From the IMG/VR virus record IMGVR_UViG_3300005747_000265: 34,650 nt of DNA; one strand, given 5' to 3'. The stretch's first letter is position 1; the number at the start of each line of letters is the position of its first letter. This DNA is from a virus. Below the pieces are notes generated by a model. It was given only the letters and a program-made list of their open reading frames with translations, was not told the origin of the DNA and made no database searches. This document shows, in pieces, positions 723 through 33,162 of the stretch. The translations under genes and the position numbers were made by a program.

Positions 723-925
723 AAACAGCAAAAGAAAAGAATCAAGAAATAAATAATATTCAAAAAGAAAAAGATAAAATGGCTTCTAATGATAAATTAT
801 ATAATGAAAGTATGTCAAAAGATTCTGGAAAAGATGCTACAGTGCCAAACACCATAATATCAAGATTTAAAATTCAAGGTATAATGCCTCTTGTGGAAAC
901 TCAAAAGGCTAGATATTGGTATTAA
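719..925 (+). CDS. hypothetical protein (68 aa)
   Basis: ORF with a 4-nt overlap with the preceding stop. Lys-rich, no motif. Confidence 0.4.
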   Translation: MKTAKEKNQEINNIQKEKDKMASNDKLYNESMSKDSGKDATVPNTIISRFKIQGIMPLVETQKARYWY

Positions 926-939
926 TCAATAAGTTCAAA

Positions 940-1914
940 ATGAAATATGATTTACTGGGAAATATAATAATTCCAAAAGATATAAAAAACTTTAGAATCC
1001 CTTATATGGGATCTAAAAACAAAATAGCGGTTAATTTATTAAAAGAGATGCTGAAGGTAAAGCCTAATGCGAAATATTTCTATGATCTTTGCGGTGGAGG
1101 TGGCTCAATGTCTTTTACTGCTTCACAATTGGGATTAAAAACTCATTACAACGAATTGCAAACAAGTTTAGTTAAATTCATAGATTATATATTTAATAGG
1201 CTTGAAAAGGGCTTAAAAGGGCAGTATGGATTATTTCCAGATGATTTTTATAAATTTATAGATAGGGATGAGTTTAAGAAGTTAAAAAATGAAGATAGTA
1301 TTAAAGGTCAATTTGCTAGAATATGCTATACCTTTGGCAATAATCAGAAATCTTATTTATTTGGAGATATAGAAAAAACAAGGCATTTAGCTCATGATAT
1401 AGTAATGTTTCAATGTGAAAAGTCTTTGAAAGAGTTTAATAAGCTAAACAAAGTTAATTATACAATTAGTAATGCTAAAACTTGGAATGAAAGAAGGTTG
1501 CATCATAAAACTGAATGGCGTCAACATATGAAAATAAAAGATTGTAAACAACTGAAACAACTGGAACAACTGCAACGACTGGTACAACTGGAACAACTAC
1601 AACAACTGGAACAACTGCAACCTATATTTACAACCTCTAGTCTATCATATAAAGATGTTAAGATCAATACCCCTATTGATGAGACTATAATTTATTTAGA
1701 TCCACCATATAGAAATACTGCTAAATATATTGAGGGTAAAGACTTTAATTATAAAGAATTAGACCAATGGTTTGTAGATAATAAATATACTTGTTTTATG
1801 AGTGAATATAATGCACCGCATAAAGTATTATTTGAAATAGATAAATTAAGCTTGATGGATAATTCAAAAGAAAAAAGGAGAGTGGTAAAAGAAAAATTAT
1901 ATATTAATCAATAA
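940..1914 (+). CDS. D12-class (Dam-like) N6-adenine DNA methyltransferase with internal (Q-L-x)8 repeat
   Basis: PYMGSKNK plus DLCGGGGS (AdoMet motif I) and IIYLDPPY (motif IV) occur in alpha-class order. The ORF track starts at TTG 916; the first in-frame ATG is 940. Confidence 0.8.
   Translation: MKYDLLGNIIIPKDIKNFRIPYMGSKNKIAVNLLKEMLKVKPNAKYFYDLCGGGGSMSFTASQLGLKTHYNELQTSLVKFIDYIFNRLEKGLKGQYGLFPDDFYKFIDRDEFKKLKNEDSIKGQFARICYTFGNNQKSYLFGDIEKTRHLAHDIVMFQCEKSLKEFNKLNKVNYTISNAKTWNERRLHHKTEWRQHMKIKDCKQLKQLEQLQRLVQLEQLQQLEQLQPIFTTSSLSYKDVKINTPIDETIIYLDPPYRNTAKYIEGKDFNYKELDQWFVDNKYTCFMSEYNAPHKVLFEIDKLSLMDNSKEKRRVVKEKLYINQ
1549..1620 (+). repeat. 8 x 9-bp tandem repeat inside the N6A-MTase gene
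   Basis: Units: caactgaaa caactggaa caactgcaa cgactggta caactggaa caactacaa caactggaa caactgcaa. They encode QLKQLEQLQRLVQLEQLQQLEQLQ. Confidence 0.9.
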
Positions 1915-4910: not shown

Positions 4911-5477
4911 TTATAATTCGATTATATCTGCACCCATATTTAACAATATAGAAGCAAGCTCGTTAGGAGTTAAAGTCTTTGGTAGTTCTTTTATTTTTCC
5001 TATTTTGTAATCTGGATAAGCAGCATATTTAGAACAAAAGAAATCTTTTATTTTAGATTTTTTTAAAAATGCAACTTTTAATCTTGATGGAAAAAAGTTT
5101 TCAAAATAACTAATAATCGCCTGTAATGCGTTATATTTTTTACCTAACTGATCTTCCAAAGATTTGTTTATATAGGTTGCTATAGTCTCTGAATAAGCTA
5201 CATTCAGCCTAATAATAAAAACCCTTGTATAACTTTTATTATATTTTATTCTTTCGTTTGCTAGAGTCTTTATGCAACCCTTTCTTTTCCTATCCCAAAA
5301 TGCACTACCTAAGCACTCGTAAATATAACCTTTGCTATATCTTGCACAATGCTCAAATTTATACTTCCTTTCTTTTATGTTTATCTCAACCCCAGTAAAT
5401 CTTTGTATAATCGATCTAAACAAATATTTAAATCTAAATCTTGATTGAAAAAATATAAAATCGTTTTCCTCAAACAT
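4911..5477 (-). CDS. YiiX/YaeF-like permuted papain-fold (NlpC/P60-related) amidase candidate
   Basis: The ordered motifs FEHCARY, IYEC, RVFIIRL, LGKKYN and FFCSKYAAY resemble the C92 family (from memory). Confidence 0.4.
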   Translation of the reverse strand: MFEENDFIFFQSRFRFKYLFRSIIQRFTGVEINIKERKYKFEHCARYSKGYIYECLGSAFWDRKRKGCIKTLANERIKYNKSYTRVFIIRLNVAYSETIATYINKSLEDQLGKKYNALQAIISYFENFFPSRLKVAFLKKSKIKDFFCSKYAAYPDYKIGKIKELPKTLTPNELASILLNMGADIIEL

Positions 5478-5479
5478 AA

Positions 5480-5743
5480 TTAAGAAGTAAGTTCATTTAA
5501 AAAATCTGCAAATTCTTGCTTTTCTTCTACAGTTGCGTTTTCTATGTAAAACTCGTCGCTTTGAATATCTTGTATCATATTAATTAAGTTTTCTTTTTTT
5601 CGCTTTATTTCTTCTGGCAAAGTTTCTTTATAATCTTTTTTTGCTAAATTAAAGTTAGTTAATTTGTTTATTAGTTCGTTTTTATTTGTTAAATTTTTTA
5701 GTGTCATTTTATTTTTTATTTTTATATTCAATACCATACTCAT
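5480..5743 (-). CDS. hypothetical protein (87 aa)
   Basis: ORF directly after the long fiber gene. Charged and coiled-coil-like. Confidence 0.45.
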   Translation of the reverse strand: MSMVLNIKIKNKMTLKNLTNKNELINKLTNFNLAKKDYKETLPEEIKRKKENLINMIQDIQSDEFYIENATVEEKQEFADFLNELTS

Positions 5744-17357: not shown

Positions 17358-18317
17358 TTAGTCTATCATTACACCATGTACTCTTGCATTATCAATAGTT
17401 AGGTTCATTAAACCTGTCATTGGTAATACATAAACATCTTGGTTTACTGGTCTAGTTACTTCCCCTTTTTCCAAGAAGTCTCCTAAATGTTTTAACTTAA
17501 TATGTTGAGAATTTAAGAAATACATATGATTAGCAGGACATTCTGGATCATAGTAAACATCAGCTCCTTTGTATTGTAATACATCGAAACCTGCGTCAGC
17601 TAATTTACTGCTAGCTACTCTTTGGATAGTCTGTAAAGAATCTTCATAAAATCCAAAGTTTATATCATCAGCAGTTATCAAATCAATCTGTTTACCAGCT
17701 TGAGCTTGACATCTTCTGTAAAGGCTATTCATTGCTTTTCGAATAGTTGTTGCGTCTTTAGTTACTGACTCTACTGAAAAATCATAGATTTTGTTTCTAA
17801 AAAAAGCACCTTCTGTCGAAGATCTATCGATACCGCCTACCGTTCCAGATGTTGGGTCATCAGCAACTAATAATTGCAAACCGCCAATTTCTTGACCACC
17901 TGTTCCAGTGCCATCTGAATAAATAGCAGATCCAAGTGTATTTTTAATTGAGCTTTCTAAGTTTTTAATTTTCTCCTCCATTAAATTTGCAATTCTCTCT
18001 TTACCAGAGTTTTGCTTCATTTCCTTGCCAGACATTGAAATAGTACCAGTAATGATTTTTTGTTCAAAATCTGCTGCAGTAATGACATCTTGGATAGTAG
18101 TGTCAAAAGTATCAAATTCACCCTGAAATTGTACTGTTCCATTTGAAGAATAAGTTAGATTTTCTCTAAAAGCTACACCACCAGATTCTTTAATTACATT
18201 TCCCTTTTCTTTTAGTCTTATAAATAAAGGGTGAAAATTTTCGATATTGTCAATAACTTCTTTTCTATAGTTATGTAATGTCGTTGTCAATATCTCCGAA
18301 ATATTAGGATTAGTCAT
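17358..18317 (-). CDS. major capsid protein
   Basis: 319 aa, directly after the scaffold-like gene and before a strong hairpin. Size and position match T7-like HK97-fold capsid genes. Confidence 0.7.
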   Translation of the reverse strand: MTNPNISEILTTTLHNYRKEVIDNIENFHPLFIRLKEKGNVIKESGGVAFRENLTYSSNGTVQFQGEFDTFDTTIQDVITAADFEQKIITGTISMSGKEMKQNSGKERIANLMEEKIKNLESSIKNTLGSAIYSDGTGTGGQEIGGLQLLVADDPTSGTVGGIDRSSTEGAFFRNKIYDFSVESVTKDATTIRKAMNSLYRRCQAQAGKQIDLITADDINFGFYEDSLQTIQRVASSKLADAGFDVLQYKGADVYYDPECPANHMYFLNSQHIKLKHLGDFLEKGEVTRPVNQDVYVLPMTGLMNLTIDNARVHGVMID

Positions 18318-19290: not shown

Positions 19291-19527
19291 ATAATCTTTT
19301 ATATGGCAATTATTCACTTTTAAATGATTTAAGTATCCGTTTTTTGTAGTGTAAACTTTATTATCAACATGGCTTTCAATTCCTCCATGCTTAGAGATAT
19401 AACCGTCTATTGTCAAATCTTCTCCAGAAGCAGGCATCTTTCTTTGTTTTGACGCTCCGCCTTTTCCGTATCCATCAAATACCCATTGTTTTTTCCCGTC
19501 TATAGTTTTTAAAACTTTTCTAGTCAT
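19288..19527 (-). CDS. hypothetical protein (79 aa)
   Basis: ORF overlapping the portal stop by 8 nt. Confidence 0.5.
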   Translation of the reverse strand: MTRKVLKTIDGKKQWVFDGYGKGGASKQRKMPASGEDLTIDGYISKHGGIESHVDNKVYTTKNGYLNHLKVNNCHIKDY

Positions 19528-21619
19528 TTTTTATTTGTTCGTTGAGTCTTTGGGTTCTATTTTCAATTACCTGCTCTGCTGTTGGTGCGACCTTTTCCAG
19601 TGTTTTTGCTTGGCGATCTGCTGCTTTGTTTGCGTCTTCAAAATCAATTTTATCGTCAAATTGCCTTTGGTTTTGTAAAACTCTTGCTTTTTCAATATCT
19701 ATCTTTTGTTGTTCTAAATTAATTTTAGCCTTTTCACTTTCTACTTTAAACTGGAACTCTCTTTCTTGTCTTTCGTTTTCTGCTTGTGCCAACACTTCTT
19801 CTTGTGAAGGCTGCTCCTCTTCTTTCGCCTCTTCTGGCTTAGATAGTAAAAACTCCTCCAGATTTCTACCTACTTTAAAAGGTCTTGCTATAAACCCTAA
19901 AAACTCGTTAAAAGCATCTGGCTGTAATATTCCAGCTTGCACCAAAGGGGTAAATTGACTTGCAAAGTTTGTTACACTACTAATAAATTCAAATCTTTCG
20001 GTCTTTTCTCTTTGTTGGTCAACCTCAATAGTGCTGTCAGTTTCAATATCTATTGAAAAAGATCTTAAAACATCATCTTTTAATATTTCATCTATTTTTT
20101 TTACTTGGTCTATCTCCATTGCAAAGCCTTTCAATTCGTTTTGTGCAATTTTCATAGTCTTATCAAATCCTTTTTTGGCTTGTTGTTTTAATAATTCTAC
20201 TTGTTGCACTTTTTCTGCACCTGGCAAATTTTCTGGCAAGTTGTTTACTGCTTCTTGTAATAGCATGTTTTGGTTGTCTTGTGCTGTTTCTGCAATATCT
20301 TTTAAACTTACTATTTGGCAACCAGAAATTTTTGCCAACTCTTCTATTCTGTAGTTTTCGCAAATTAACTCTGCCATAATTTCCATAGTGTCTTTTATCA
20401 TAATGGCGTTAGCTTTCTGTAAAGGTTGGATTCTACTAATAGCAAAATCGCCCTTGAGTCTTTGTGCTGTTGCCGTCTCGCTCGCTATACTTACACCCCT
20501 AACAATATCAGATAAGCCCGTAATTTCTCTTATATTATTAATAATTTGTGCTTTTTGTTGTGTTAAAATGGTTATAGTGTTAGCAATAGGAACTATATCT
20601 TTTATATAAATTTGATTTTTAATATCTACGGTTGCACCTCCAGACATAGGAGCAAAGTCCCCGTCTTCTCCATTAAATAAATTTTGGACATCTTCATTTT
20701 CTGCGACTGAATTATAAACGCCTGTATATTTTATTTGCTCCGTTAAAGACCTTATTCTTTCATCTAAAATATTTAATTCTTCAGCCTGTGATTTATACAT
20801 CCTATATAAAGGTATAGGCAATAATGAACTAGGATCGCTGTCGGTGCCTACTGGTCTGGCTATAGGGAAGAAATTGCTTAAATTATAAGGGTTTTGATCT
20901 ACTTGGATAATCTTTTCTTGTGTGTACCATAATACCTGATCGTTTACCTTGTCCCAGATTTCCCAAATTTCTAAAGTTTCCAGTTTTCCATCATTGTCCG
21001 TTGAATCTGGCTCTAAGTCTTTTGCATCTTCGCCAAACAATTCCAATAATTCTGCTTGTGTTTTATAAGACCTAAAAGCTAACCAATTTAAATCGTCCCA
21101 ACTGGTCGCTGTGTAATCTGTTATAAAATTTTTATATTCTATTCTTTTTAAGAAGATTTTTTTGTTGCTTTCGTCCAGAATTTCTTCTCCCTCTTCGGTT
21201 TTTACAACTTCTCCCTCTTCCATGTAAACACGAACCAAACCACGCCCATTAATTAAAAAGTCTTTTCTTGCTTTACTAAAAATTGTATCTGCTTTTGTTG
21301 TTTCTAAAAAAAAGGTTGTGACTCTTTCTAAAATTTCACTTGCAATTTTAGCCTCCTCATTTTCATCTTTAAATCTTCTTGTTATATTAGGCTTGGGTAG
21401 TTTTGAATACACTAAAGGGGCTAATGTTTCGGTATTGGCATATAATATATTATACCTGTTTACATCTTCCACATTATACTGATCTTTATAAATATTTTCA
21501 TATTTTTTAGATTCTCTAAAATATTTTTCATGAAATATTAAACATTTTTCAATTTCTTTTTTCCAGATCTCGTGTAAATCTGATTTTTGTTTTGATTTCT
21601 TTTGGTCTTCGTTGCTCAT
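19520..21619 (-). CDS. portal protein
   Basis: 699 aa, the largest head gene, immediately downstream of TerL. Charged coiled C-terminus. Confidence 0.7.
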   Translation of the reverse strand: MSNEDQKKSKQKSDLHEIWKKEIEKCLIFHEKYFRESKKYENIYKDQYNVEDVNRYNILYANTETLAPLVYSKLPKPNITRRFKDENEEAKIASEILERVTTFFLETTKADTIFSKARKDFLINGRGLVRVYMEEGEVVKTEEGEEILDESNKKIFLKRIEYKNFITDYTATSWDDLNWLAFRSYKTQAELLELFGEDAKDLEPDSTDNDGKLETLEIWEIWDKVNDQVLWYTQEKIIQVDQNPYNLSNFFPIARPVGTDSDPSSLLPIPLYRMYKSQAEELNILDERIRSLTEQIKYTGVYNSVAENEDVQNLFNGEDGDFAPMSGGATVDIKNQIYIKDIVPIANTITILTQQKAQIINNIREITGLSDIVRGVSIASETATAQRLKGDFAISRIQPLQKANAIMIKDTMEIMAELICENYRIEELAKISGCQIVSLKDIAETAQDNQNMLLQEAVNNLPENLPGAEKVQQVELLKQQAKKGFDKTMKIAQNELKGFAMEIDQVKKIDEILKDDVLRSFSIDIETDSTIEVDQQREKTERFEFISSVTNFASQFTPLVQAGILQPDAFNEFLGFIARPFKVGRNLEEFLLSKPEEAKEEEQPSQEEVLAQAENERQEREFQFKVESEKAKINLEQQKIDIEKARVLQNQRQFDDKIDFEDANKAADRQAKTLEKVAPTAEQVIENRTQRLNEQIKND

Positions 21620-21676: not shown

Positions 21677-23146
21677 TTATTCATAGTTCTTGTTTTTCTT
21701 TCCTTTTCTTACCTGGTGCGGGTTAAAGTTTTCCCAGAAATCTTGTGTTGGATCTGGTAAAGCCTCTTTTATGTCTATTGTTATAGGTCTTGACATTGCT
21801 ATATATCTGGCTACATCCAATAAATGGTCTTCTAGTGCTGTGTCTAAGTCCTCTGGCTTCGTTCTGTCATATTGCATTATCGGCAGTGTTCTTATTAAGT
21901 TTTTACAATCTTCAGTAATATACATTAGTGGTCTACCGTCTTTCCCTGTCAATCTTGTTCTTATTTGTTGCCAACCTGCTACCCTTTTATTGTCGGCTCT
22001 TTCATAAATACAGCCATATTTTGCCAACTCTTCGGCCTGTGTCATTCCCATATTTTTTTTACTTTCATCAAAAATTGCTGGATCTGCTACCTGTCTGTTC
22101 ATCTTTTCTTTTCCTTGTCTTTCCATTGTGTTTTTTGCTATTTCTGGCAACTCCATTTTTAAACCTTTATTGGGCTTCCCTGTCCATCCGTAATATTCAC
22201 GATAAAAAATTAAACTACCACGAGGTAATGAGATTTCTTTTCCTCCAATGTTTATTAAACTTCCATCACTTATAGCCGCCCACAATACACCAAAGGGTGC
22301 AGAATAGCCCCAGTCAAAACCTCGTATTTTAAACCAATCTTTTGGTATTTCAAACCTTGGTATTATATGAGTATCTTTATTAAAGGTATCAAAATAAGCC
22401 CCCTCGATAGCATCCCAATCGCCATCTAGCATTGCCCTGGCTAATGCACCACCTAAGCCTAGCAACTTATGCTTGTAATTAGGGTCACTTTGTGTCATTG
22501 TCGGGTTGTCGTTTAATTTTGCCGGTATAAACTGCCTTGTCATTCCTCCTTCCTCTGGATTCATCTCGTAAATTTTTAAAGGGTCTTTATTGTCTATAAA
22601 TTCACTTTTTACAAATTCATGTCCCACTCCACCAGGGTTTGATCCGCAAATTATTCTTGGTAATGTTCGAGGTAAAAAATCTGGTGTGTTTGCAGGATAT
22701 ACAAGTCCCGCCGTTCTGCATCTTGCTCTAAGAAATTTATATATAAAGTCTGTAAAGTGAGTTAACTCATCTATTAGTAAAATATCTATTTCTGCTCCCT
22801 GATAATTGTAAACATCTTTCTCATGTTGGCAATGACACAAATGAATCATGGAGCCATTTTTAAAAGCAATCTTCCCAGTTGATTCATTAATTTTTACTAT
22901 TCTTTTTTCAATCAGTGGTGATAAAATGTTTAAAAATCCATTTTTACCGTATAAATGATTTTTTTTTAAATCTTCCGTTTTCCTTCTAAATAAATAAATT
23001 TGTATGTTAGGAATAAAGCCTGCATAAGCTATTGCTAAAGTTCTCATGCAGTGAGACTTGCCCCCACCTGCTGCCCCTCCATATAAAATCTCAGTTGCCT
23101 CACTTGTTAAGCATAGCGTTTGTTTATAATGTAAATTAAACTCCAT
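21677..23146 (-). CDS. terL: terminase large subunit
   Basis: Walker A GGAAGGGKS and Walker B-like ILLIDELTH. 489 aa, directly upstream of portal. Confidence 0.85.
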   Translation of the reverse strand: MEFNLHYKQTLCLTSEATEILYGGAAGGGKSHCMRTLAIAYAGFIPNIQIYLFRRKTEDLKKNHLYGKNGFLNILSPLIEKRIVKINESTGKIAFKNGSMIHLCHCQHEKDVYNYQGAEIDILLIDELTHFTDFIYKFLRARCRTAGLVYPANTPDFLPRTLPRIICGSNPGGVGHEFVKSEFIDNKDPLKIYEMNPEEGGMTRQFIPAKLNDNPTMTQSDPNYKHKLLGLGGALARAMLDGDWDAIEGAYFDTFNKDTHIIPRFEIPKDWFKIRGFDWGYSAPFGVLWAAISDGSLINIGGKEISLPRGSLIFYREYYGWTGKPNKGLKMELPEIAKNTMERQGKEKMNRQVADPAIFDESKKNMGMTQAEELAKYGCIYERADNKRVAGWQQIRTRLTGKDGRPLMYITEDCKNLIRTLPIMQYDRTKPEDLDTALEDHLLDVARYIAMSRPITIDIKEALPDPTQDFWENFNPHQVRKGKKNKNYE

Positions 23147-24002: not shown

Positions 24003-24191
24003 CTATTTATCAAGTAGTAATTTCAAGGTTAAATGCTCCGCGTCACGAAAAAAAATAAACTGTTCTTTATCTCGTTTTATCCAGTAATTTACCGATGTTT
24101 TAATATAGTCTAATTTGTTAGTTAGTCTTTCTTTAGAGTGAGAAGCTTGAATAATAGATTTATGTAATTCTGAATTTGTGAAATCTGTCAT
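24003..24191 (-). CDS. hypothetical early protein (62 aa)
   Basis: ORF preceded by a consensus-type promoter and the conserved leader. Confidence 0.5.
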   Translation of the reverse strand: MTDFTNSELHKSIIQASHSKERLTNKLDYIKTSVNYWIKRDKEQFIFFRDAEHLTLKLLLDK

Positions 24192-24222
24192 TTTATTTTG
24201 ATTTGAGTTAATTACAAAACTA

Positions 24223-24251
24223 AGTATAGTTAACTCTTTTTAAGATGTCAA
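24223..24251 (-). promoter_or_regulatory. sigma70-type early promoter (TTGACA-N17-TATACT)
   Basis: On the + strand, tgtcaa is at 24246..24251 and agtata at 24223..24228. A GTAATTAAC box follows 7 nt after the -10 (24207..24215). Confidence 0.7.
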
Positions 24252-24255
24252 CTAT

Positions 24256-24807
24256 TTATTTTAAGTTTTTTAATTCTGGTAATATATAATGATTTACCGA
24301 GTACATACAATTATTATTCCAAAGCCTCTGCCAACAATTGTTATTTCTTGACCATTTAAAGCCGTGTTTTTTCATTATGTCAATTCCTGCCCTTTCTGGC
24401 TTATCATCAAAAAAGAATTGCACCCTATCGTTCTCTGCGTTTTGCTCATCTGACCTTATCTCGCTTGAGGGGTTATTTTTCTTATCTATTGCTTTTTTTA
24501 CCTTATCAATAAAATCATACATTTCTTGACTTCTTGCCCTCTCTCTATTGTTCATTTTTTCCATCCTAGCAACTGGAAAATTAGATGGTCCAGTAATCAT
24601 TGGAGACATACAATTGCTTTTAGCGTTTAATGAGGCTAGAAATAAGCTCTCAAACTTTGTAAAGGCTCTTTCATCTGCTCCTAATTCTGTAAATTCTTTA
24701 TTTATCTCGTCAAAATAGTTGCATGCGCTTACTGCTCTTTTTTTTGGTGAAAAACTTATAGCATAATAAGCTCTGTAAGCAGTGTCATAGTGTTTATGTT
24801 TAGTCAT
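24256..24807 (-). CDS. hypothetical early protein (183 aa), DUF3560-like C-terminus (weak)
   Basis: C-terminal VQFFFDDKPERAGIDIMKKHGFKWSRNNNCWQR pattern (recalled only from memory). Confidence 0.35.
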   Translation of the reverse strand: MTKHKHYDTAYRAYYAISFSPKKRAVSACNYFDEINKEFTELGADERAFTKFESLFLASLNAKSNCMSPMITGPSNFPVARMEKMNNRERARSQEMYDFIDKVKKAIDKKNNPSSEIRSDEQNAENDRVQFFFDDKPERAGIDIMKKHGFKWSRNNNCWQRLWNNNCMYSVNHYILPELKNLK

Positions 24808-24839
24808 TTTATTTTTAGTTTGAGTTAATTACAAAACTA

Positions 24840-24868
24840 AGTATAACTAACTACTTTTAATATGTCAA
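24840..24868 (-). promoter_or_regulatory. sigma70-type early promoter (TTGACA-N17-TATACT)
   Basis: On the + strand, tgtcaa is at 24863..24868 and agtata at 24840..24845. The GTAATTAAC box is at 24824..24832. About 60 bp is near-identical to the 24195..24262 copy. Confidence 0.7.
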
Positions 24869-24872
24869 CTAT

Positions 24873-25274
24873 TTATTTTAATTTATACCAATTTTTAAAA
24901 TTTAAAACTTTTTTCCTTTTTTCCTCCGAGTCATGCACATAATCATAATAATCAAATATATCTTCAATATTAGCTACTTTTAGCTCTACAGCTTGCTTTA
25001 AGTCTTCCGTTGTTATCCAATACTCTTCATTAATTATCAATGTTTCTCCTATGTTGTTATGCAACCATTCCCCCGTGATTAATCCCTCGTCACTACCGTC
25101 ACTTGCTAAAAAATTTGTACCCTCTGCCGCTTCACAATCTAAAAGTTGCTTGCCGTCATGAAAGCCAAAGATAATATCTTTATAATCTGATCTTAGCAAG
25201 ATTTCAACAAGTAGTTCATTAATTGATTTATTATATGCTTTTAGTAAGTCTTCTGCTTTAGTGTTAATTTTCAT
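24873..25274 (-). CDS. acidic early protein (133 aa)
   Basis: Asp/Glu-rich ORF (EDIFDYYDYVHDSEE etc.). No motif. Confidence 0.45.
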   Translation of the reverse strand: MKINTKAEDLLKAYNKSINELLVEILLRSDYKDIIFGFHDGKQLLDCEAAEGTNFLASDGSDEGLITGEWLHNNIGETLIINEEYWITTEDLKQAVELKVANIEDIFDYYDYVHDSEEKRKKVLNFKNWYKLK

Positions 25275-25467: not shown

Positions 25468-26139
25468 TTATTTTAAATTATGTTCGTCAACACATTTATC
25501 ACAACCTACGCAATTATAGCAATCAAAACAATCATCGCAATCTATGCAATCTTGGCAATCTTCACAATATACGCACCCTTTACAATCTTCTAATTTTTCG
25601 CAATTTTTACAATTTTCTGATCTTATACAATCTTGGCAATGCTCGCAACTTGTGCAATCAATGCAATCTTTACAATTATAACAATTAGTGCAATGTTCAC
25701 AATCTTTACAATCTTTACAATCATAACAACCTTGACAATCTTTACAATATACACATTCTTGGCAGTCTTCTGATGTTTGGCATTTTCTGCAATTAGTGCA
25801 AAGTGTACATCTTATACAATCTTGGCAATCTTCGCAGTTAGAACAATCTTTACAATTATAACAATTAGTGCAATTAGTACAATTTTCACAATATGATAAT
25901 CTTCTACAATATATGCAATCTTTACAATTATAACAATTAGTGCAATTAGTACAATTAATGCAACGCGTACAATTTATGCAATTTTTACAATCTTTGCAAT
26001 CAATGCAATTTATGTTTAAATTTTCATCAACTGAAATTATATCATTATTTAATAAATGCTTTTCTTGGTATGGTGTAAGTTTTTTGCTTTTTAAAAAAGG
26101 GTATTTTTTAATTAATTGCTCTATTGTTTCAAATTTCAT
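25468..26139 (-). CDS. period-3 cysteine repeat protein, (x-[D/N]-C)n, unknown family
   Basis: 223 aa. 54 Cys (counted by eye) occupy 54 of 58 consecutive triplet positions. It has its own promoter. Confidence 0.7.
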   Translation of the reverse strand: MKFETIEQLIKKYPFLKSKKLTPYQEKHLLNNDIISVDENLNINCIDCKDCKNCINCTRCINCTNCTNCYNCKDCIYCRRLSYCENCTNCTNCYNCKDCSNCEDCQDCIRCTLCTNCRKCQTSEDCQECVYCKDCQGCYDCKDCKDCEHCTNCYNCKDCIDCTSCEHCQDCIRSENCKNCEKLEDCKGCVYCEDCQDCIDCDDCFDCYNCVGCDKCVDEHNLK

Positions 26140-26169
26140 AATTTTTATTTTTAGTTAATTACTTAACTA

Positions 26170-26197
26170 AGTATAAACTACTCTTTTAATATGTCAA
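26170..26197 (-). promoter_or_regulatory. sigma70-type early promoter (TTGACA-N16-TATACT)
   Basis: On the + strand, tgtcaa is at 26192..26197 and agtata at 26170..26175. The GTAATTAAC box is at 26154..26162. Confidence 0.65.
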
Positions 26198-26205
26198 CTA
26201 ATTAT

Positions 26206-26604
26206 TTAAAAAGGTATGTCATCATCTAGTAAATTTTCAGATTGATACCCATTCGCTTTTGCTTCGTTGTGTTTATCTACTGCTTCAAATTTTGCCTGAT
26301 TAATAACTACTTTTATATAATTAATTGTTTTTCCGCTTTGATCCTGAAAATTATCAGCAATTAAGTTTATTTCTGCTTCGAATAGTTGCCCCTTACTATC
26401 TAGAATAGCCCTCTCTGTGTCTCTGTCTATTTGGCTTTTAAATGCTACAAACGGCAATGTCTTTGATATATATATATCATTTTTTTTTGTAGAAATATTT
26501 ACTTTACCAGAAATAATTTTTTCACTTTCTCTTATTTCAAAAGTGCTTTTTTCATATTGATTACTTTCTTTATTATATACATTTGCTATTCTTAGTTTTT
26601 GCAT
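26206..26604 (-). CDS. ssb: single-stranded DNA-binding protein
   Basis: 132 aa ending ...LLDDDIPF, the acidic SSB C-terminal tip (E. coli SSB ends DDDIPF). The size fits a single OB fold. Confidence 0.65.
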   Translation of the reverse strand: MQKLRIANVYNKESNQYEKSTFEIRESEKIISGKVNISTKKNDIYISKTLPFVAFKSQIDRDTERAILDSKGQLFEAEINLIADNFQDQSGKTINYIKVVINQAKFEAVDKHNEAKANGYQSENLLDDDIPF

Positions 26605-26632: not shown

Positions 26633-26842
26633 TTATTGGTCTTTATCGTTATCTATGAAGATATTTCTACCAGCCTCAAATTGATTAATTTGTCTTATTA
26701 GCTCATAAGATTCTGATCTTAAAACATTAATCTCAACATCTGTTAATCTTGTCTCTTTAAAATTGGCTAGTGTTGAAGATATTATACTAAAAGATTTAAT
26801 TATTTTTTTGTGTTTATCTTTGTAAAATTGTTTTTTGTTCAT
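26633..26842 (-). CDS. hypothetical protein (69 aa)
   Basis: ORF whose 29-bp leader is shared with the next gene. Confidence 0.45.
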   Translation of the reverse strand: MNKKQFYKDKHKKIIKSFSIISSTLANFKETRLTDVEINVLRSESYELIRQINQFEAGRNIFIDNDKDQ

Positions 26843-27548: not shown

Positions 27549-28049
27549 TTAATTTAATTCTTTTGTCCAATTTTCCAAGGTTACAGACTTTTGCATTTTT
27601 AGGTTATTAAATGCTTTTTCTATTTGTTTCTTGCTGTATGATCTAAATGTTGCAGCTAATGAGCTAAATAGATAATCTCCATAAATTATATTGAAATATT
27701 CATAAATTTCAGTAATTAATTTTTGCTTTTCGCTTTTAATTAATTCTATTTTTTTTGCATTTTCTTTTGAAATTCTAAATGCTTTCTGATCCTTGCAATA
27801 CTCAATAAATATTTTTACTTGTGGTATTTTATTATAAAAAGTTTCTTTCCTTATAATCTCTAAAGTTGCTTTTTCAAAATCTTCATTTGTAAAATCTTGT
27901 AAAAAGTTTTCAAATAGTATTATTTTACCTTTTAGCAGTTGGTCGCCTTTATCTCCTGAAAATTCTAGTCCTGCATCCAGGCAAATTAATTTTAGTCCTT
28001 TTAAATATATTTCTTTATCTATCATTTGTTTATAATTCGGGGTTTTCAT
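27549..28049 (-). CDS. hypothetical protein, possible G39P-like helicase-loader (weak)
   Basis: FLQDFTNEDFEKATLEIIRKETFYNKIP resembles loader-type N-domains. It lies next to the organizer-like gene. Confidence 0.3.
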   Translation of the reverse strand: MKTPNYKQMIDKEIYLKGLKLICLDAGLEFSGDKGDQLLKGKIILFENFLQDFTNEDFEKATLEIIRKETFYNKIPQVKIFIEYCKDQKAFRISKENAKKIELIKSEKQKLITEIYEYFNIIYGDYLFSSLAATFRSYSKKQIEKAFNNLKMQKSVTLENWTKELN

Positions 28050-28407
28050 AAATATTTCCTACAACTTCGCACTCTGACAGTTCAAACGAAGCTACCACAG
28101 CGATTGAACTCTTAACTCCGTCAGATGTTATTACGCTAGGATATGAATTATTATCTTTAGAAAAAAATTTGAATTGTAAATCCTCTTTATCATAACTAAC
28201 TTCAAGTAAATATTCTTGAGTGCAAGCTTTATATTTTAACAAATCACCCTCAAAAATTAAATTATTATTTTTGTCTCGTTTGTCGATACATTGCATTATT
28301 ACATTATAATCTTCTATGCCTCTATGAATATCAAAGTAAGTCATACAACCTTCGGGAGAATTATAACTAGGTTTATCCCAAGCTCTAAATTTAAATCTAT
28401 CTGCCAT
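28030..28407 (-). CDS. YopX-family protein
   Basis: KFRAWD..., IFEGDLL and the C-terminal VVGNIYENPEL are YopX hallmarks. Confidence 0.7.
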   Translation of the reverse strand: MADRFKFRAWDKPSYNSPEGCMTYFDIHRGIEDYNVIMQCIDKRDKNNNLIFEGDLLKYKACTQEYLLEVSYDKEDLQFKFFSKDNNSYPSVITSDGVKSSIAVVASFELSECEVVGNIYENPEL

Positions 28408-30581: not shown

Positions 30582-31271
30582 ATGACAGAAGAGAAAAAAT
30601 TAAACTATTTTGAAGAGTTAAACAATATTAATGTTCAAGACAAAATAGAAAAAAAGAACAATCTATCGTATTTATCATGGGCGTTCGCATGGGAGCAGTT
30701 AAAAATTAAGCATCCTAAAGCAAAATATAAAGTCTATGAGAGAGAGAACGGAATAAATTATTGGACGGACGATAGAACAGCATGGGTTAAAGTATCTGTC
30801 ACGGTTGACGATATAGAACATATAGAGTATTTGCCAATTATGGATTATAGAAATAAATCAATTCCAGTTAATCAAGTCAGTTCTTTTAATGTTAATACAT
30901 CTATTCAAAGAGCAATAACAAAGGCGATCGCACGACACGGACTAGGTTTATATATCTATGCTGGCGAAGATATACCCTCAGCGGAAAAAGATGATATTTT
31001 AGAAGAGGAAAAGAAAGAAAAAAAAGAAAAGCAAATTACTAAAAAACTTAGTAAAGTTTTTGATGATGATATGAAGCAGGTTATGCAAGATGTTAATAAA
31101 AACACGGCAGAAGAAATAAAAAATGCAATTAGCGAGTGTAAATCAAGAGATGCAGTTGATGAGAAATATCTAGAATATAAATCAGATATGACAAAATTAT
31201 ATAAATATAATACATCTTTATTTAACGAAGTTAAAGAATTTAAAGAAAATATTAAATCTTTATTACAATAA
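30582..31271 (+). CDS. Rad52-like single-strand annealing protein (Sak/DUF1071 type)
   Basis: LSYLSWAFAWEQLK...YLPIMDYRNKSI...IQRAITKAIARHGLGLYIYAGEDIP matches the DUF1071/Sak signature (from memory). Confidence 0.6.
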   Translation: MTEEKKLNYFEELNNINVQDKIEKKNNLSYLSWAFAWEQLKIKHPKAKYKVYERENGINYWTDDRTAWVKVSVTVDDIEHIEYLPIMDYRNKSIPVNQVSSFNVNTSIQRAITKAIARHGLGLYIYAGEDIPSAEKDDILEEEKKEKKEKQITKKLSKVFDDDMKQVMQDVNKNTAEEIKNAISECKSRDAVDEKYLEYKSDMTKLYKYNTSLFNEVKEFKENIKSLLQ

Positions 31272-32535: not shown

Positions 32536-33162
32536 ATGAATATACCATTTAAAGTAAAACTACTAACAGATACAGCAAAAGCACCCGCTAAGGAGAATCA
32601 GGGAGATTTATGGGACATATATGCTGATGATTTTAGTTTTAATCATTTAAAAGATAGAAATTTTACTATGTATAAATCGGCAGATGGCAAGTATGTGGAT
32701 TTATGTCCTATGGGACGAGTCCTTGTGAAAACAGGAATTAGCCTTGAGTTGCCTAAGCAATATCAAGTTAGTGTCACTAATACATCAAAACTATGTGATA
32801 AGTGGTTTTTAGTTAGTGTCACTAATACATCAAAACTATGTGATAAGTGGTTTTTTAAAGAGCCTAAATCTGATATTGGATTCTTCAACTTAAAATCTTA
32901 TGCAGTAGCTGATTTACGCCCACGCTCTGGACTCGCTTTAAAACATGGAATTACAGTTTTAAACTCACCTGCAACAATAGATAATTTATATAGAAAAGAA
33001 ATAGGAGTTATTCTATATAATGCAGGACACGAACCTTACACTATTACAAAAGGGGATAAAATCGCTCAAATGCTAATAAGACCACTATATCCAAGTAAAA
33101 TGGAAATAGTGAAAAGTATTGAGGACACTCAAAGGGGTGGTTATGGCTCAACAGGTAAATAA
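32536..33162 (+). CDS. dut: trimeric-type dUTPase with a ~50-aa insertion
   Basis: Motifs RPRSGLALKHGI (II), ATIDNLYRKEIGVIL (III), GDKIAQM (IV) and RGGYGSTGK (V). An insertion precedes motif II. Confidence 0.8.
   Translation: MNIPFKVKLLTDTAKAPAKENQGDLWDIYADDFSFNHLKDRNFTMYKSADGKYVDLCPMGRVLVKTGISLELPKQYQVSVTNTSKLCDKWFLVSVTNTSKLCDKWFFKEPKSDIGFFNLKSYAVADLRPRSGLALKHGITVLNSPATIDNLYRKEIGVILYNAGHEPYTITKGDKIAQMLIRPLYPSKMEIVKSIEDTQRGGYGSTGK
32766..32855 (+). repeat. perfect 2 x 45-bp tandem duplication inside dut
   Basis: agttagtgtcactaatacatcaaaactatgtgataagtggttttt occurs at 32766..32810 and again at 32811..32855. It encodes VSVTNTSKLCDKWF(L/F) twice. Confidence 0.9.

Follow-up and report, generated by a model that had tools for sequence, protein, structure and literature searches.

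The antifreeze protein of the beetle Tenebrio molitor (TmAFP; 1EZG/1L1I, PF02420, IPR016133) is a right-handed beta-helix of 12-residue turns (TCTxSxxCxxAx) in which positions 2, 5, 8 and 11 point inward and Cys2 and Cys8 form one disulfide per turn. Pentapeptide-repeat proteins are acidic rods, some of them DNA mimics; metallothioneins are small, irregular and poor in aromatic residues; and CxxC and CxxCxxC spacings wrap Zn or Fe-S (iron-sulfur) centres. Here we set beside these systems a protein encoded on the minus strand of a 34,650-nt stretch of virus DNA (IMG/VR record IMGVR_UViG_3300005747_000265; "the window" below means this whole stretch), in which cysteine recurs at every third residue across 58 triplets. 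Our reading of this Cys-repeat protein, held tentatively and with slightly less than even confidence, is of a capped, acidic, cytoplasmic rod with a probably metal-binding cysteine core that acts as a binding or decoy scaffold. The finding is striking without being a singleton or categorically new: if the fold is right, the protein would be an all-cysteine variant of the TmAFP-type mini-solenoid.

The open reading frame (ORF) encodes 223 aa with 54 Cys between residues 45 and 216. By script count, 54/54 Cys lie in a single period-3 register across the 58 triplets, an arrangement with a chance probability of ~5e-26 given three possible registers. Leu81, Ser123, Ser174 and Leu183 occupy the four remaining places in the register, and the residue preceding Cys is Asp in 20 and Asn in 18 triplets (38/58, 66%). 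An earlier note on this DNA, which counted by eye, had reported the 54 Cys at every third residue of 58 triplets, the Leu or Ser exceptions, Asp or Asn before Cys in about two thirds of units and the lack of collagen-type Gly, and the recount bears out each of these; Gly occurs 3 times in the whole protein, and the periodic residue is Cys. Cysteine makes up 24% of the protein and 31% of the array, compared with 0.89% of the other 41 window ORFs, and this protein alone holds 40% of all window-encoded Cys. It is acidic (net -13, pI 4.75) and contains 18 aromatic residues (3 F, 11 Y, 4 H), and on inspection of the sequence no signal peptide or hydrophobic segment was seen in aa 1-44. Its parts are as follows.

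25468..26139, minus strand: whole ORF (223 aa plus stop), consisting of an N-terminal cap, the (x-x-C)58 array and a 7-aa tail.
26014..26139, minus strand: N-terminal cap, aa 1-42, ending in the lead-in DENLNIN-C, with two predicted helices at residues 6-12 and 23-30 (predicted local distance difference test score, pLDDT, 79-86).
25492..26013, minus strand: array of 58 x-[D/N]-C triplets (aa 43-216) with 54 Cys, in unbroken Cys runs of 12, 13, 16, 2 and 11.
25897..25899, minus strand: Leu81, the first non-Cys occupant of the register in the script count.
25771-25773, minus strand: Ser123.
25618-25620, minus strand: Ser174.
25591-25593, minus strand: Leu183.
25471..25491, minus strand: C-terminal tail VDEHNLK, replaced by a different tail in two further contigs, L001 and L002.

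L001 and L002 are independent IMG/VR contigs in which nt 1-664 of the ORF, and with them the array, recur unchanged, and the array is therefore no assembly artefact; the observation is confirmed. At the DNA level the array is 9-bp periodic, with repeat copies that are ~60-70% identical, and within it lies a longer direct repeat in three places.

25844..25884, no strand assigned: first copy of a 41-bp perfect direct repeat, exact.
25916..25956, no strand assigned: second copy, offset by 72 bp (24 aa).
25664..25694, no strand assigned: 31-bp third copy, offset by 180 bp (60 aa) from the first.

These copies, already given in the earlier note with offsets in multiples of 9 bp, are exact, and the offsets of 72 and 180 bp are also multiples of 36 bp (12 aa). 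L001 (1172-1864) and L002, which represent the same phage, both carry ~120 bp of extra sequence, inserted precisely at the 3' end of the Cys-repeat gene. This insertion turns the tail ...HNLK into ...HNSNFLNLIFW (230 aa) and sets the gene apart from the helix-turn-helix (HTH) gene that follows it.

Curated libraries gave little for the protein itself: a Pfam scan returned no match even at E<=10, PF02420 included, and neither NCBIfam nor the PADLOC defence library matched it. It does match PHROG 15341 ("unknown function") at E 4e-25, and sequence searches place it in a large company. A word-indexed search found 147 relatives, and an exhaustive HMMER search of 1.84 billion representatives of 50% identity protein clusters found 1007 clusters at E<=1e-3, 52 of them at E<=1e-10. 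With ~1000 related clusters the gene is not a one-off; judged from sequence, it appears to be an extreme, stand-alone member of a large uncurated family spread over phages, giant viruses, bacteria and eukaryotes. The statement in the earlier note that the protein could not be placed in any family was thus overstated, given these clusters, a profile match to TmAFP 1EZG (E 4.7e-5) and phage homologues that already bear PF02420 or IPR016133 labels.

Nearly all relatives from the word index have x-x-C arrays in register, 7 to 58 triplets long, and among the 120 matches listed two other proteins also reach 58, P0002 (53 Cys) and the near-identical P0130. The window protein has the layout of the family: a cap or a lead-in (N-x-N-C or similar), then 13 or more x-x-C triplets in one register, in which Cys follows N, D or G. 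Among 2185 triplets from 78 proteins, Cys fills position 3 in 97%; at position 2 Asn accounts for 35%, Asp for 26% and Gly for 8%, and position 1 is mixed (K, T, I, E, V). Spacings between successive Cys are 3 (6221 cases), 6 (348), 9 (218) and 12 (45), with few out of register, so that the register is conserved in homologues, and its exceptions are, across the family, mostly Ser and Leu. Four caps or lead-ins recur ahead of the arrays: DENGN[IV]NC; Y..D..GN.W....EA...S.TL.NC; NG.S.EF......N.TN.GCWNC; and YP.L....T..Q...LLNN.I..ID..YNINC. The last is the type of the window protein, common to P0001, P0131, P0132, P0153 and the ortholog in a sister phage described below, and arrays in this subfamily run from 13 to 58 triplets.

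The module occurs alone, in tandem (in proteins of up to 1426 aa) and fused to unrelated domains, namely RING, U-box+SAM, an IrrE/CapP-like metalloprotease, dATP/dGTP diphosphohydrolase-N, DUF7448, DUF7222 and DUF6378. In P0061, P0045, P0094 and P0103 the array is coupled to U-box, SAM or RING domains, and in the Asn-rich proteins P0121, P0122 and P0127 (424-1426 aa), which are probably from a eukaryote or giant virus, several Cys arrays led by DENGN[IV][NR]C alternate with ~150-aa non-Cys domains. PADLOC applied to the relatives matched the IrrE-like domain of P0102 to CapP/RmrA models and gave a marginal "control protein" match for P0004 (E 0.013); a search with the C-terminal domain of P0004, which asked whether other solenoid repeats replace (xxC)n, returned 4 close matches. 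P0019 has a signal-peptide-like N-terminus and lies on an animal-type contig, where the relative adjoins sodium-channel genes, and others lie on T4-like and siphovirus-like phage contigs or in a giant-virus metagenome-assembled genome (MAG); in one T4-like phage the relative adjoins the major capsid gene. A scan of genome contigs with the single protein gave 3 MAG loci. All relatives carry the source name "hypothetical protein". The module is thus common (~1000 clusters) yet without a curated Pfam or NCBIfam model, and a family model together with one biochemical characterisation would re-annotate many proteins and could yield a new metal-templating scaffold.

Several lines of evidence suggest that the array probably folds as a TmAFP-type beta-solenoid. 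TmAFP 1EZG is the only meaningful match among PDB sequences, at E 4.7e-5 with the family profile and 1e-3 with the single sequence. In the alignment the Cys of TmAFP fall on alternate Cys columns, with its Ser, Ala and Thr on the columns between, and in pairwise BLAST TmAFP aligns without gaps, at ~30% identity, anywhere along the array. The profile also weakly matches CXXC-type fingers (E 0.065-3). The dominance of N, D and G at position 2 fits a geometry of one side plus one corner per triplet, in which such residues would be expected; Asn, Asp and Gly are the residues best suited to left-handed turn conformations. Family-wide, residues at the two variable positions agree most often with those 4 triplets away (z +5.7, or +5.1 without the largest subfamily), and among lags 2 to 10 none but lag 4 stands out; the 12-residue turn that we infer would have this period, and the 72- and 180-bp offsets of the recent duplications in the gene, as multiples of 36 bp, fit it too. 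AlphaFold2, run with two different alignments, places isolated beta-bridges at every third residue in aa 85-109 and 127-178, with pLDDT of 79-88 for aa 134-173, the longest unbroken Cys run, similar values (79-86) being given for the two-helix cap. When the second model was compared with the PDB by Foldseek, the weak matches returned were all beta-helices (TBCC/RP2, Qnr/AlbG, pectate-lyase-like proteins and tailspikes). One of the two hypotheses in the earlier note, a metal- or disulfide-laddered solenoid scaffold, is the one that the 1EZG match, the beta-bridges, the turn residues at position 2 and the lag-4 autocorrelation together favour.

A number of observations weigh against this reading. 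The AlphaFold models are poor overall (mean pLDDT 62-63; predicted template modelling score, pTM, 0.38-0.42). Foldseek found no PDB match for the first full-length model and no significant PDB match overall, and TmAFP itself was not returned; the current Pfam library is silent, PF02420 included. The resemblance to TmAFP is largely one of Cys spacing and could simply reflect composition. An expectation-maximisation phase search for a superperiod did not favour 4 over 5 triplets, the lengths of the Cys runs show no bias to multiples of 4, and the window protein taken alone lacks the lag-4 signal and shows only lag 8. Finally, Zn(Cys)4 sites stacked ~4.8 Å apart would bury much negative charge.

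Two other repeat architectures were considered for the array and rejected. A polyproline-II bundle like that of the snow-flea antifreeze protein would need turns for which unbroken Cys runs of 36-48 residues leave no space, and AlphaFold predicts beta-bridges; a collagen-like triple helix is at odds with a total of only three Gly in the protein and with Cys as the periodic residue.

The comparison with TmAFP is informative in its differences as well. The two proteins share the period-3 register and the triplets TDC, KDC and TNC, and the thin beta-solenoid with small core residues seen in TmAFP is the fold we favour for the window protein. However, Cys recurs in TmAFP at every 6th residue, Ser or Ala lying between, its inward positions being Cys, Ser, Cys and Ala, whereas the window protein has Cys at every 3rd residue and would have Cys at all four inward positions of each putative turn. 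The T-C-T ice-binding face of TmAFP is absent (0 TCT, 0 TxT), and an antifreeze function was rejected on the lack of this motif. TmAFP is secreted, whereas the window protein is phage-encoded, has a cytoplasmic context and lacks a signal peptide; its array is about twice as long as that of TmAFP and follows a helical cap. PF02420 was scored by older pipelines on a homologue in Campylobacter phage CPt10; the current Pfam model does not report the window protein. Pentapeptide-repeat proteins (Qnr, MfpA and AlbG, with A[D/N]LXX repeats and the Rfr fold) are four-sided right-handed beta-helices with very short repeats and D or N beside the inward residue, as proposed for the window protein; their repeat (PF00805), however, has a period of 5 and a Leu/Phe core, compared with a period of 3, a Cys core and no Pfam match here. 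Qnr and AlbG show no sequence relationship to the window protein, and their Foldseek E-values exceed 1, so the likeness is an analogy of mode of action and not one of membership.

The sister phage represented by contigs L003/L004 shows how fast the gene changes. Its genome is syntenic with the window and its flanking proteins are 80-97% identical to those of the window (132-aa protein 95%, HTH protein 97%, large terminase 97%), whereas its Cys-repeat ortholog has 161 aa and 37 triplets and is only 42% identical, cap included. Indels within this array comprise whole triplets and leave the Cys register intact. Such an ORF at the syntenic position of a related phage, with repeat numbers that can be compared (37 vs 58 triplets), is what the earlier note had suggested looking for. 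From these alignments the gene appears hypervariable in surface positions and in length, with Cys and the turn residue conserved, a pattern that would be typical of either a scaffold with a surface subject to shifting selection or a cassette that is often exchanged; evolution faster than that of the neighbours is typical of genes that engage host factors. At the position of a 69-aa window ORF (26633-26842), L004 carries a different gene (5065-5523; 152 aa, with ~21-aa tandem repeats, GHALQ.VKEQTPEICLEAVKQN), which is therefore a second swapped cassette in the same module.

We propose the following model for how the protein is built and used. A two-helix N-terminal cap would be followed by the (x-[N/D/G]-C)n array, coiled into a very slender right-handed beta-solenoid whose 12-residue turns have four sides of 3 residues each. 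The first residue of a triplet would face outward, the second (Asn, Asp or Gly) would form the corner and the Cys would face inward, giving four inward-facing Cys per turn, that is, a TmAFP-type coil with a core made entirely of Cys; by TmAFP geometry, 58 triplets would give ~14.5 turns and a rod ~7 nm long. The column of thiols would hold metal, for which we would guess Zn2+ by default, at no more than about one ion per turn, and the rod, a binding or decoy scaffold and not an enzyme, would engage a host factor during the replication phase. Among the ways of stabilising the core, one held by metal seems the most likely, because the protein is cytoplasmic and has no signal peptide, and 27 disulfides are implausible in the reducing cytoplasm; taken by itself, we still put the metal-bound core at somewhat less than an even chance. 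The binding or decoy role is proposed because the surface is acidic and hypervariable and the repeat number shifts quickly between sister phages, and it is possible at best. A bolder version, which we regard as speculative and rather unlikely, would make the module a new kind of metalloprotein architecture, the core a continuous cysteine-thiolate column enclosing a linear file of metal ions, up to about one per 12-residue turn or some 13-14 here, and the rod a polyanionic decoy for a DNA-binding host factor; cells and giant viruses would attach the same rod to E3 ligases, proteases and nucleotide hydrolases as a plug-in module for binding. Were this true, thiolates and acidic surface together would give the ~7-nm rod the charge and length of roughly 20 bp of DNA. 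If only the fold is right, the protein would already be an extreme form of the smallest known beta-solenoid, with a cysteine-only core, and whether metal ions, Fe-S-like chains or free thiols hold such a core together in the reducing cytoplasm would become a testable question.

The richness in cysteine could also matter for capacity and not for shape. A giant metallothionein-like, largely unstructured polythiol that shifts the metal or redox balance of the host by taking up Zn, Cu, Cd, Fe or oxidants would account for 54 thiols per chain at the Cys content given above, for the CxxC spacing, which is the classic one for metal ligands, for low AlphaFold confidence overall, and for a repeat number that varies freely, as if only capacity were selected. 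It partly overlaps with the solenoid scaffold, since a metal-cored solenoid would also bind many ions, but it fits the conserved folded cap, the turn-forming N, D and G at position 2 and the modular fusions less well; it likewise leaves the strict period-3 register and the predicted beta-bridge pattern unaccounted for, and fusion as a discrete module to enzymes and E3-ligase domains indicates a defined fold. High Cys density is what the protein has in common with metallothioneins, and the earlier note was right to set it apart from them: at 223 aa, with strictly periodic Cys, 18 aromatic residues, few Gly and no match to a metallothionein or any other Pfam family, it does not look like one. 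Nor does it resemble CXXC fingers or ferredoxins, which have 8 or 4 Cys in a fixed motif where the window protein has an open-ended array. Overall we consider a pure sponge unlikely. A true TmAFP-like protein, acting outside the cell or in the virion as a structural or surface-binding rod (on ice or another lattice) and closing its disulfide ladder after release or in the particle, is improbable. The nearest solved relative is indeed a secreted, disulfide-bonded antifreeze protein, some eukaryotic relatives such as P0019 have signal-peptide-like N-termini, and a relative adjoins the major capsid gene in one T4-like phage; yet neither a signal peptide nor a hydrophobic segment was seen in aa 1-44 of the window protein, its gene belongs to the replication module and not to the virion genes, the ice-binding motif is missing, and 27 disulfides are implausible in a reducing cytoplasm.

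Heterocycloanthracin-type precursors of thiazole/oxazole-modified microcins (TOMMs) offer a superficially similar layout of leader plus repeat. As described for Bacillus, they have strain-variable, repeated Cys-Xaa-Xaa, are encoded far from the maturation operon, are 50-90 aa long with Gly/Ser-rich spacers, and need cyclodehydratase, dehydrogenase and docking genes (Haft 2009, PMC2674419). Like them, the window protein has a non-repetitive N-terminus followed by Cys at every third residue in variable repeat number, and one could picture a 44-aa leader ahead of a Cys-Xaa-Xaa core that is converted to thiazoles by enzymes encoded elsewhere, as in a ribosomally synthesised and post-translationally modified peptide (RiPP). 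Unlike them, it has 223 aa and bulky, charged spacers (K, T, I, E with N, D), and in many relatives the array stands between or ahead of folded domains, which is incompatible with a cleaved core. NCBIfam, which we take to include the precursor model TIGR03601, gave no match. No cyclodehydratase, dehydrogenase, docking protein or radical-SAM enzyme was detectable among the 30 window ORFs scanned with PHROGs and/or Pfam, which include every ORF of at least 200 aa, in agreement with the earlier note that no RiPP maturation enzymes lie nearby; the host could still encode such enzymes. We reject the RiPP reading, as very improbable, on size, spacer chemistry and this lack of maturation enzymes detectable in the window. 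Still less credible, to the point of being negligible, is that the protein is incidental and the 9-bp periodic DNA an origin, an iteron-like element or an assembly artefact. The repeat does lie inside the replication module, and the equivalent region of Flavobacterium phage FL-1 is annotated in another reading frame. But the minus-strand frame is the only one open across the window array (others yield ORFs of <=72 aa), both Cys codons are in use (TGT 29, TGC 25) among repeat copies that have diverged as given above, the array is identical in three independent assemblies, and both the cap and a family of ~1000 clusters in unrelated genomes are conserved at the protein level; on codon use, the single open frame and this protein-level conservation the iteron reading was rejected.

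Against this background, cultured phages offer further instances of the capped array favoured here as a solenoid. A tblastn search of 50,697 phage records found relatives in 17 Campylobacter phage records (CP220, CPt10, CP21 and IBB35 types), three Vibrio breoganii phage records (N4-like) and FL-1. CPt10_1641 with related Eucampyvirinae proteins, NVP1238A_68 of Vibrio phage 1.238.A and the FL-1 protein resemble the window protein in having (x-x-C)n behind a short cap and in being encoded in DNA-metabolism or early regions. Their caps are of different types (Y..D..GN.W...EA...S.TL.NC or NG.S.EF....D....N.TN.GCWNC) and their arrays are shorter, with ~27 Cys in CPt10_1641 and ~22 in NVP1238A_68, counted from translations, compared with 54. 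In Campylobacter jumbo phages (e.g. OP654737.1, HE815464.1) the (x-x-C)n module occurs at up to 8 places per genome, which suggests paralogue expansion. BFVD adds relatives in the choanoflagellate giant virus ChoanoV1 of the Mimiviridae (E 3e-4) and in Campylobacter phage IBB35 (E 3.4e-3), named there "TNFR-Cys domain-containing" and "CaiB/BaiF family". The depositors of CPt10_1641 noted an "HMMPfam hit to PF02420, Insect antifreeze protein", and NVP1238A_68 is named "insect antifreeze protein" via IPR016133; the link to the beetle antifreeze repeat has thus been made before, by automatic pipelines only, and full-text literature searches found no study that discusses or tests these proteins. 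Names such as "insect antifreeze protein", "TNFR-Cys" and "CaiB/BaiF family", all assigned automatically, mislead. In FL-1 (KY421186.2, 2850-3420) the annotated coding sequence APZ82901.1 translates as (IAPVAP)n; the same strand has a different frame, open across the 570 nt and past both ends of that coding sequence, which encodes a capped (x-x-C)n protein (NGVSKDFAELHPDFEKQNETNYGCWNCSRC...) like NVP1238A_68, and the deposited frame is therefore probably wrong.

The window is a segment of a phage genome with 31% G+C. It encodes an adaptor, tail proteins and a replication module besides the three genes that follow, nearly all of these on the minus strand.

19520-21619: portal.
21677-23146: large terminase.
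17358-18317: major head protein.

The Cys-repeat gene lies between replication genes and the terminase, within the replication module and away from the virion genes. Downstream of it is a 63-aa ORF for an HTH protein (PF02796, E 2e-5), and upstream is a 132-aa ORF with no Pfam, PHROG or PDB-sequence match; of the earlier placement between ssb and an HTH regulator, the second half stands; for the ssb label these searches gave no support. When 11 kb of the window was compared with cultured phages by megablast, no match was found, and the portal, terminase and capsid proteins have cultured-phage relatives that are only 25-46% identical (Brucella, Rhizobium, Acinetobacter and Myxococcus phages).

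Upstream of the Cys-repeat gene is a promoter-like cassette that recurs elsewhere.

26140..26215, minus strand: promoter cassette upstream of the ORF, with a -35 element TTGACA at 26197-26192, a 16-nt spacer, a -10 element TATACT at 26175-26170 and a conserved leader, TTAGTTnnGTAATTAACT.
24808-24885, minus strand: near-identical copy of the cassette.
24190-24270, minus strand: near-identical copy of the cassette.
L004 5923-6012 and 7070-7143: further copies in the sister phage.

The TTGACA-N16-TATACT site named in the earlier note is therefore present (26197..26170, minus strand) and sigma70-like. The ~60-nt cassette, AATAGTTGACAT.TTAAAAG...TTATACTTAGTTnnGTAATTAACT, occurs in three near-identical copies in the window, each upstream of a minus-strand gene, and its conservation runs beyond the -10 element into the leader. 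This suggests a phage-specific promoter/operator or an element of the 5' untranslated region common to several replication-module genes. A dedicated promoter read by host RNA polymerase is plausible, because the promoter site belongs to a cassette that recurs in the window and in L004, and gene position and consensus promoter together would point to early expression. No Shine-Dalgarno motif was found in the leader of the Cys-repeat gene. Across the window, a Shine-Dalgarno-like motif precedes only 4/42 ORFs and leaders are A/T-rich, which, with 31% G+C, hints at a host that does not depend on Shine-Dalgarno-led initiation.

The window also carries accessory genes on both strands: a D12-class N6-adenine DNA methyltransferase (916-1914, plus strand), a YopX-family protein (28030-28407, minus strand), a Sak-type single-strand annealing protein (30582-31271, plus strand) and a dUTPase (32536-33162, plus strand). 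Transcription of the plus-strand genes past ~30.5 kb runs divergently from that of the replication and structural genes.

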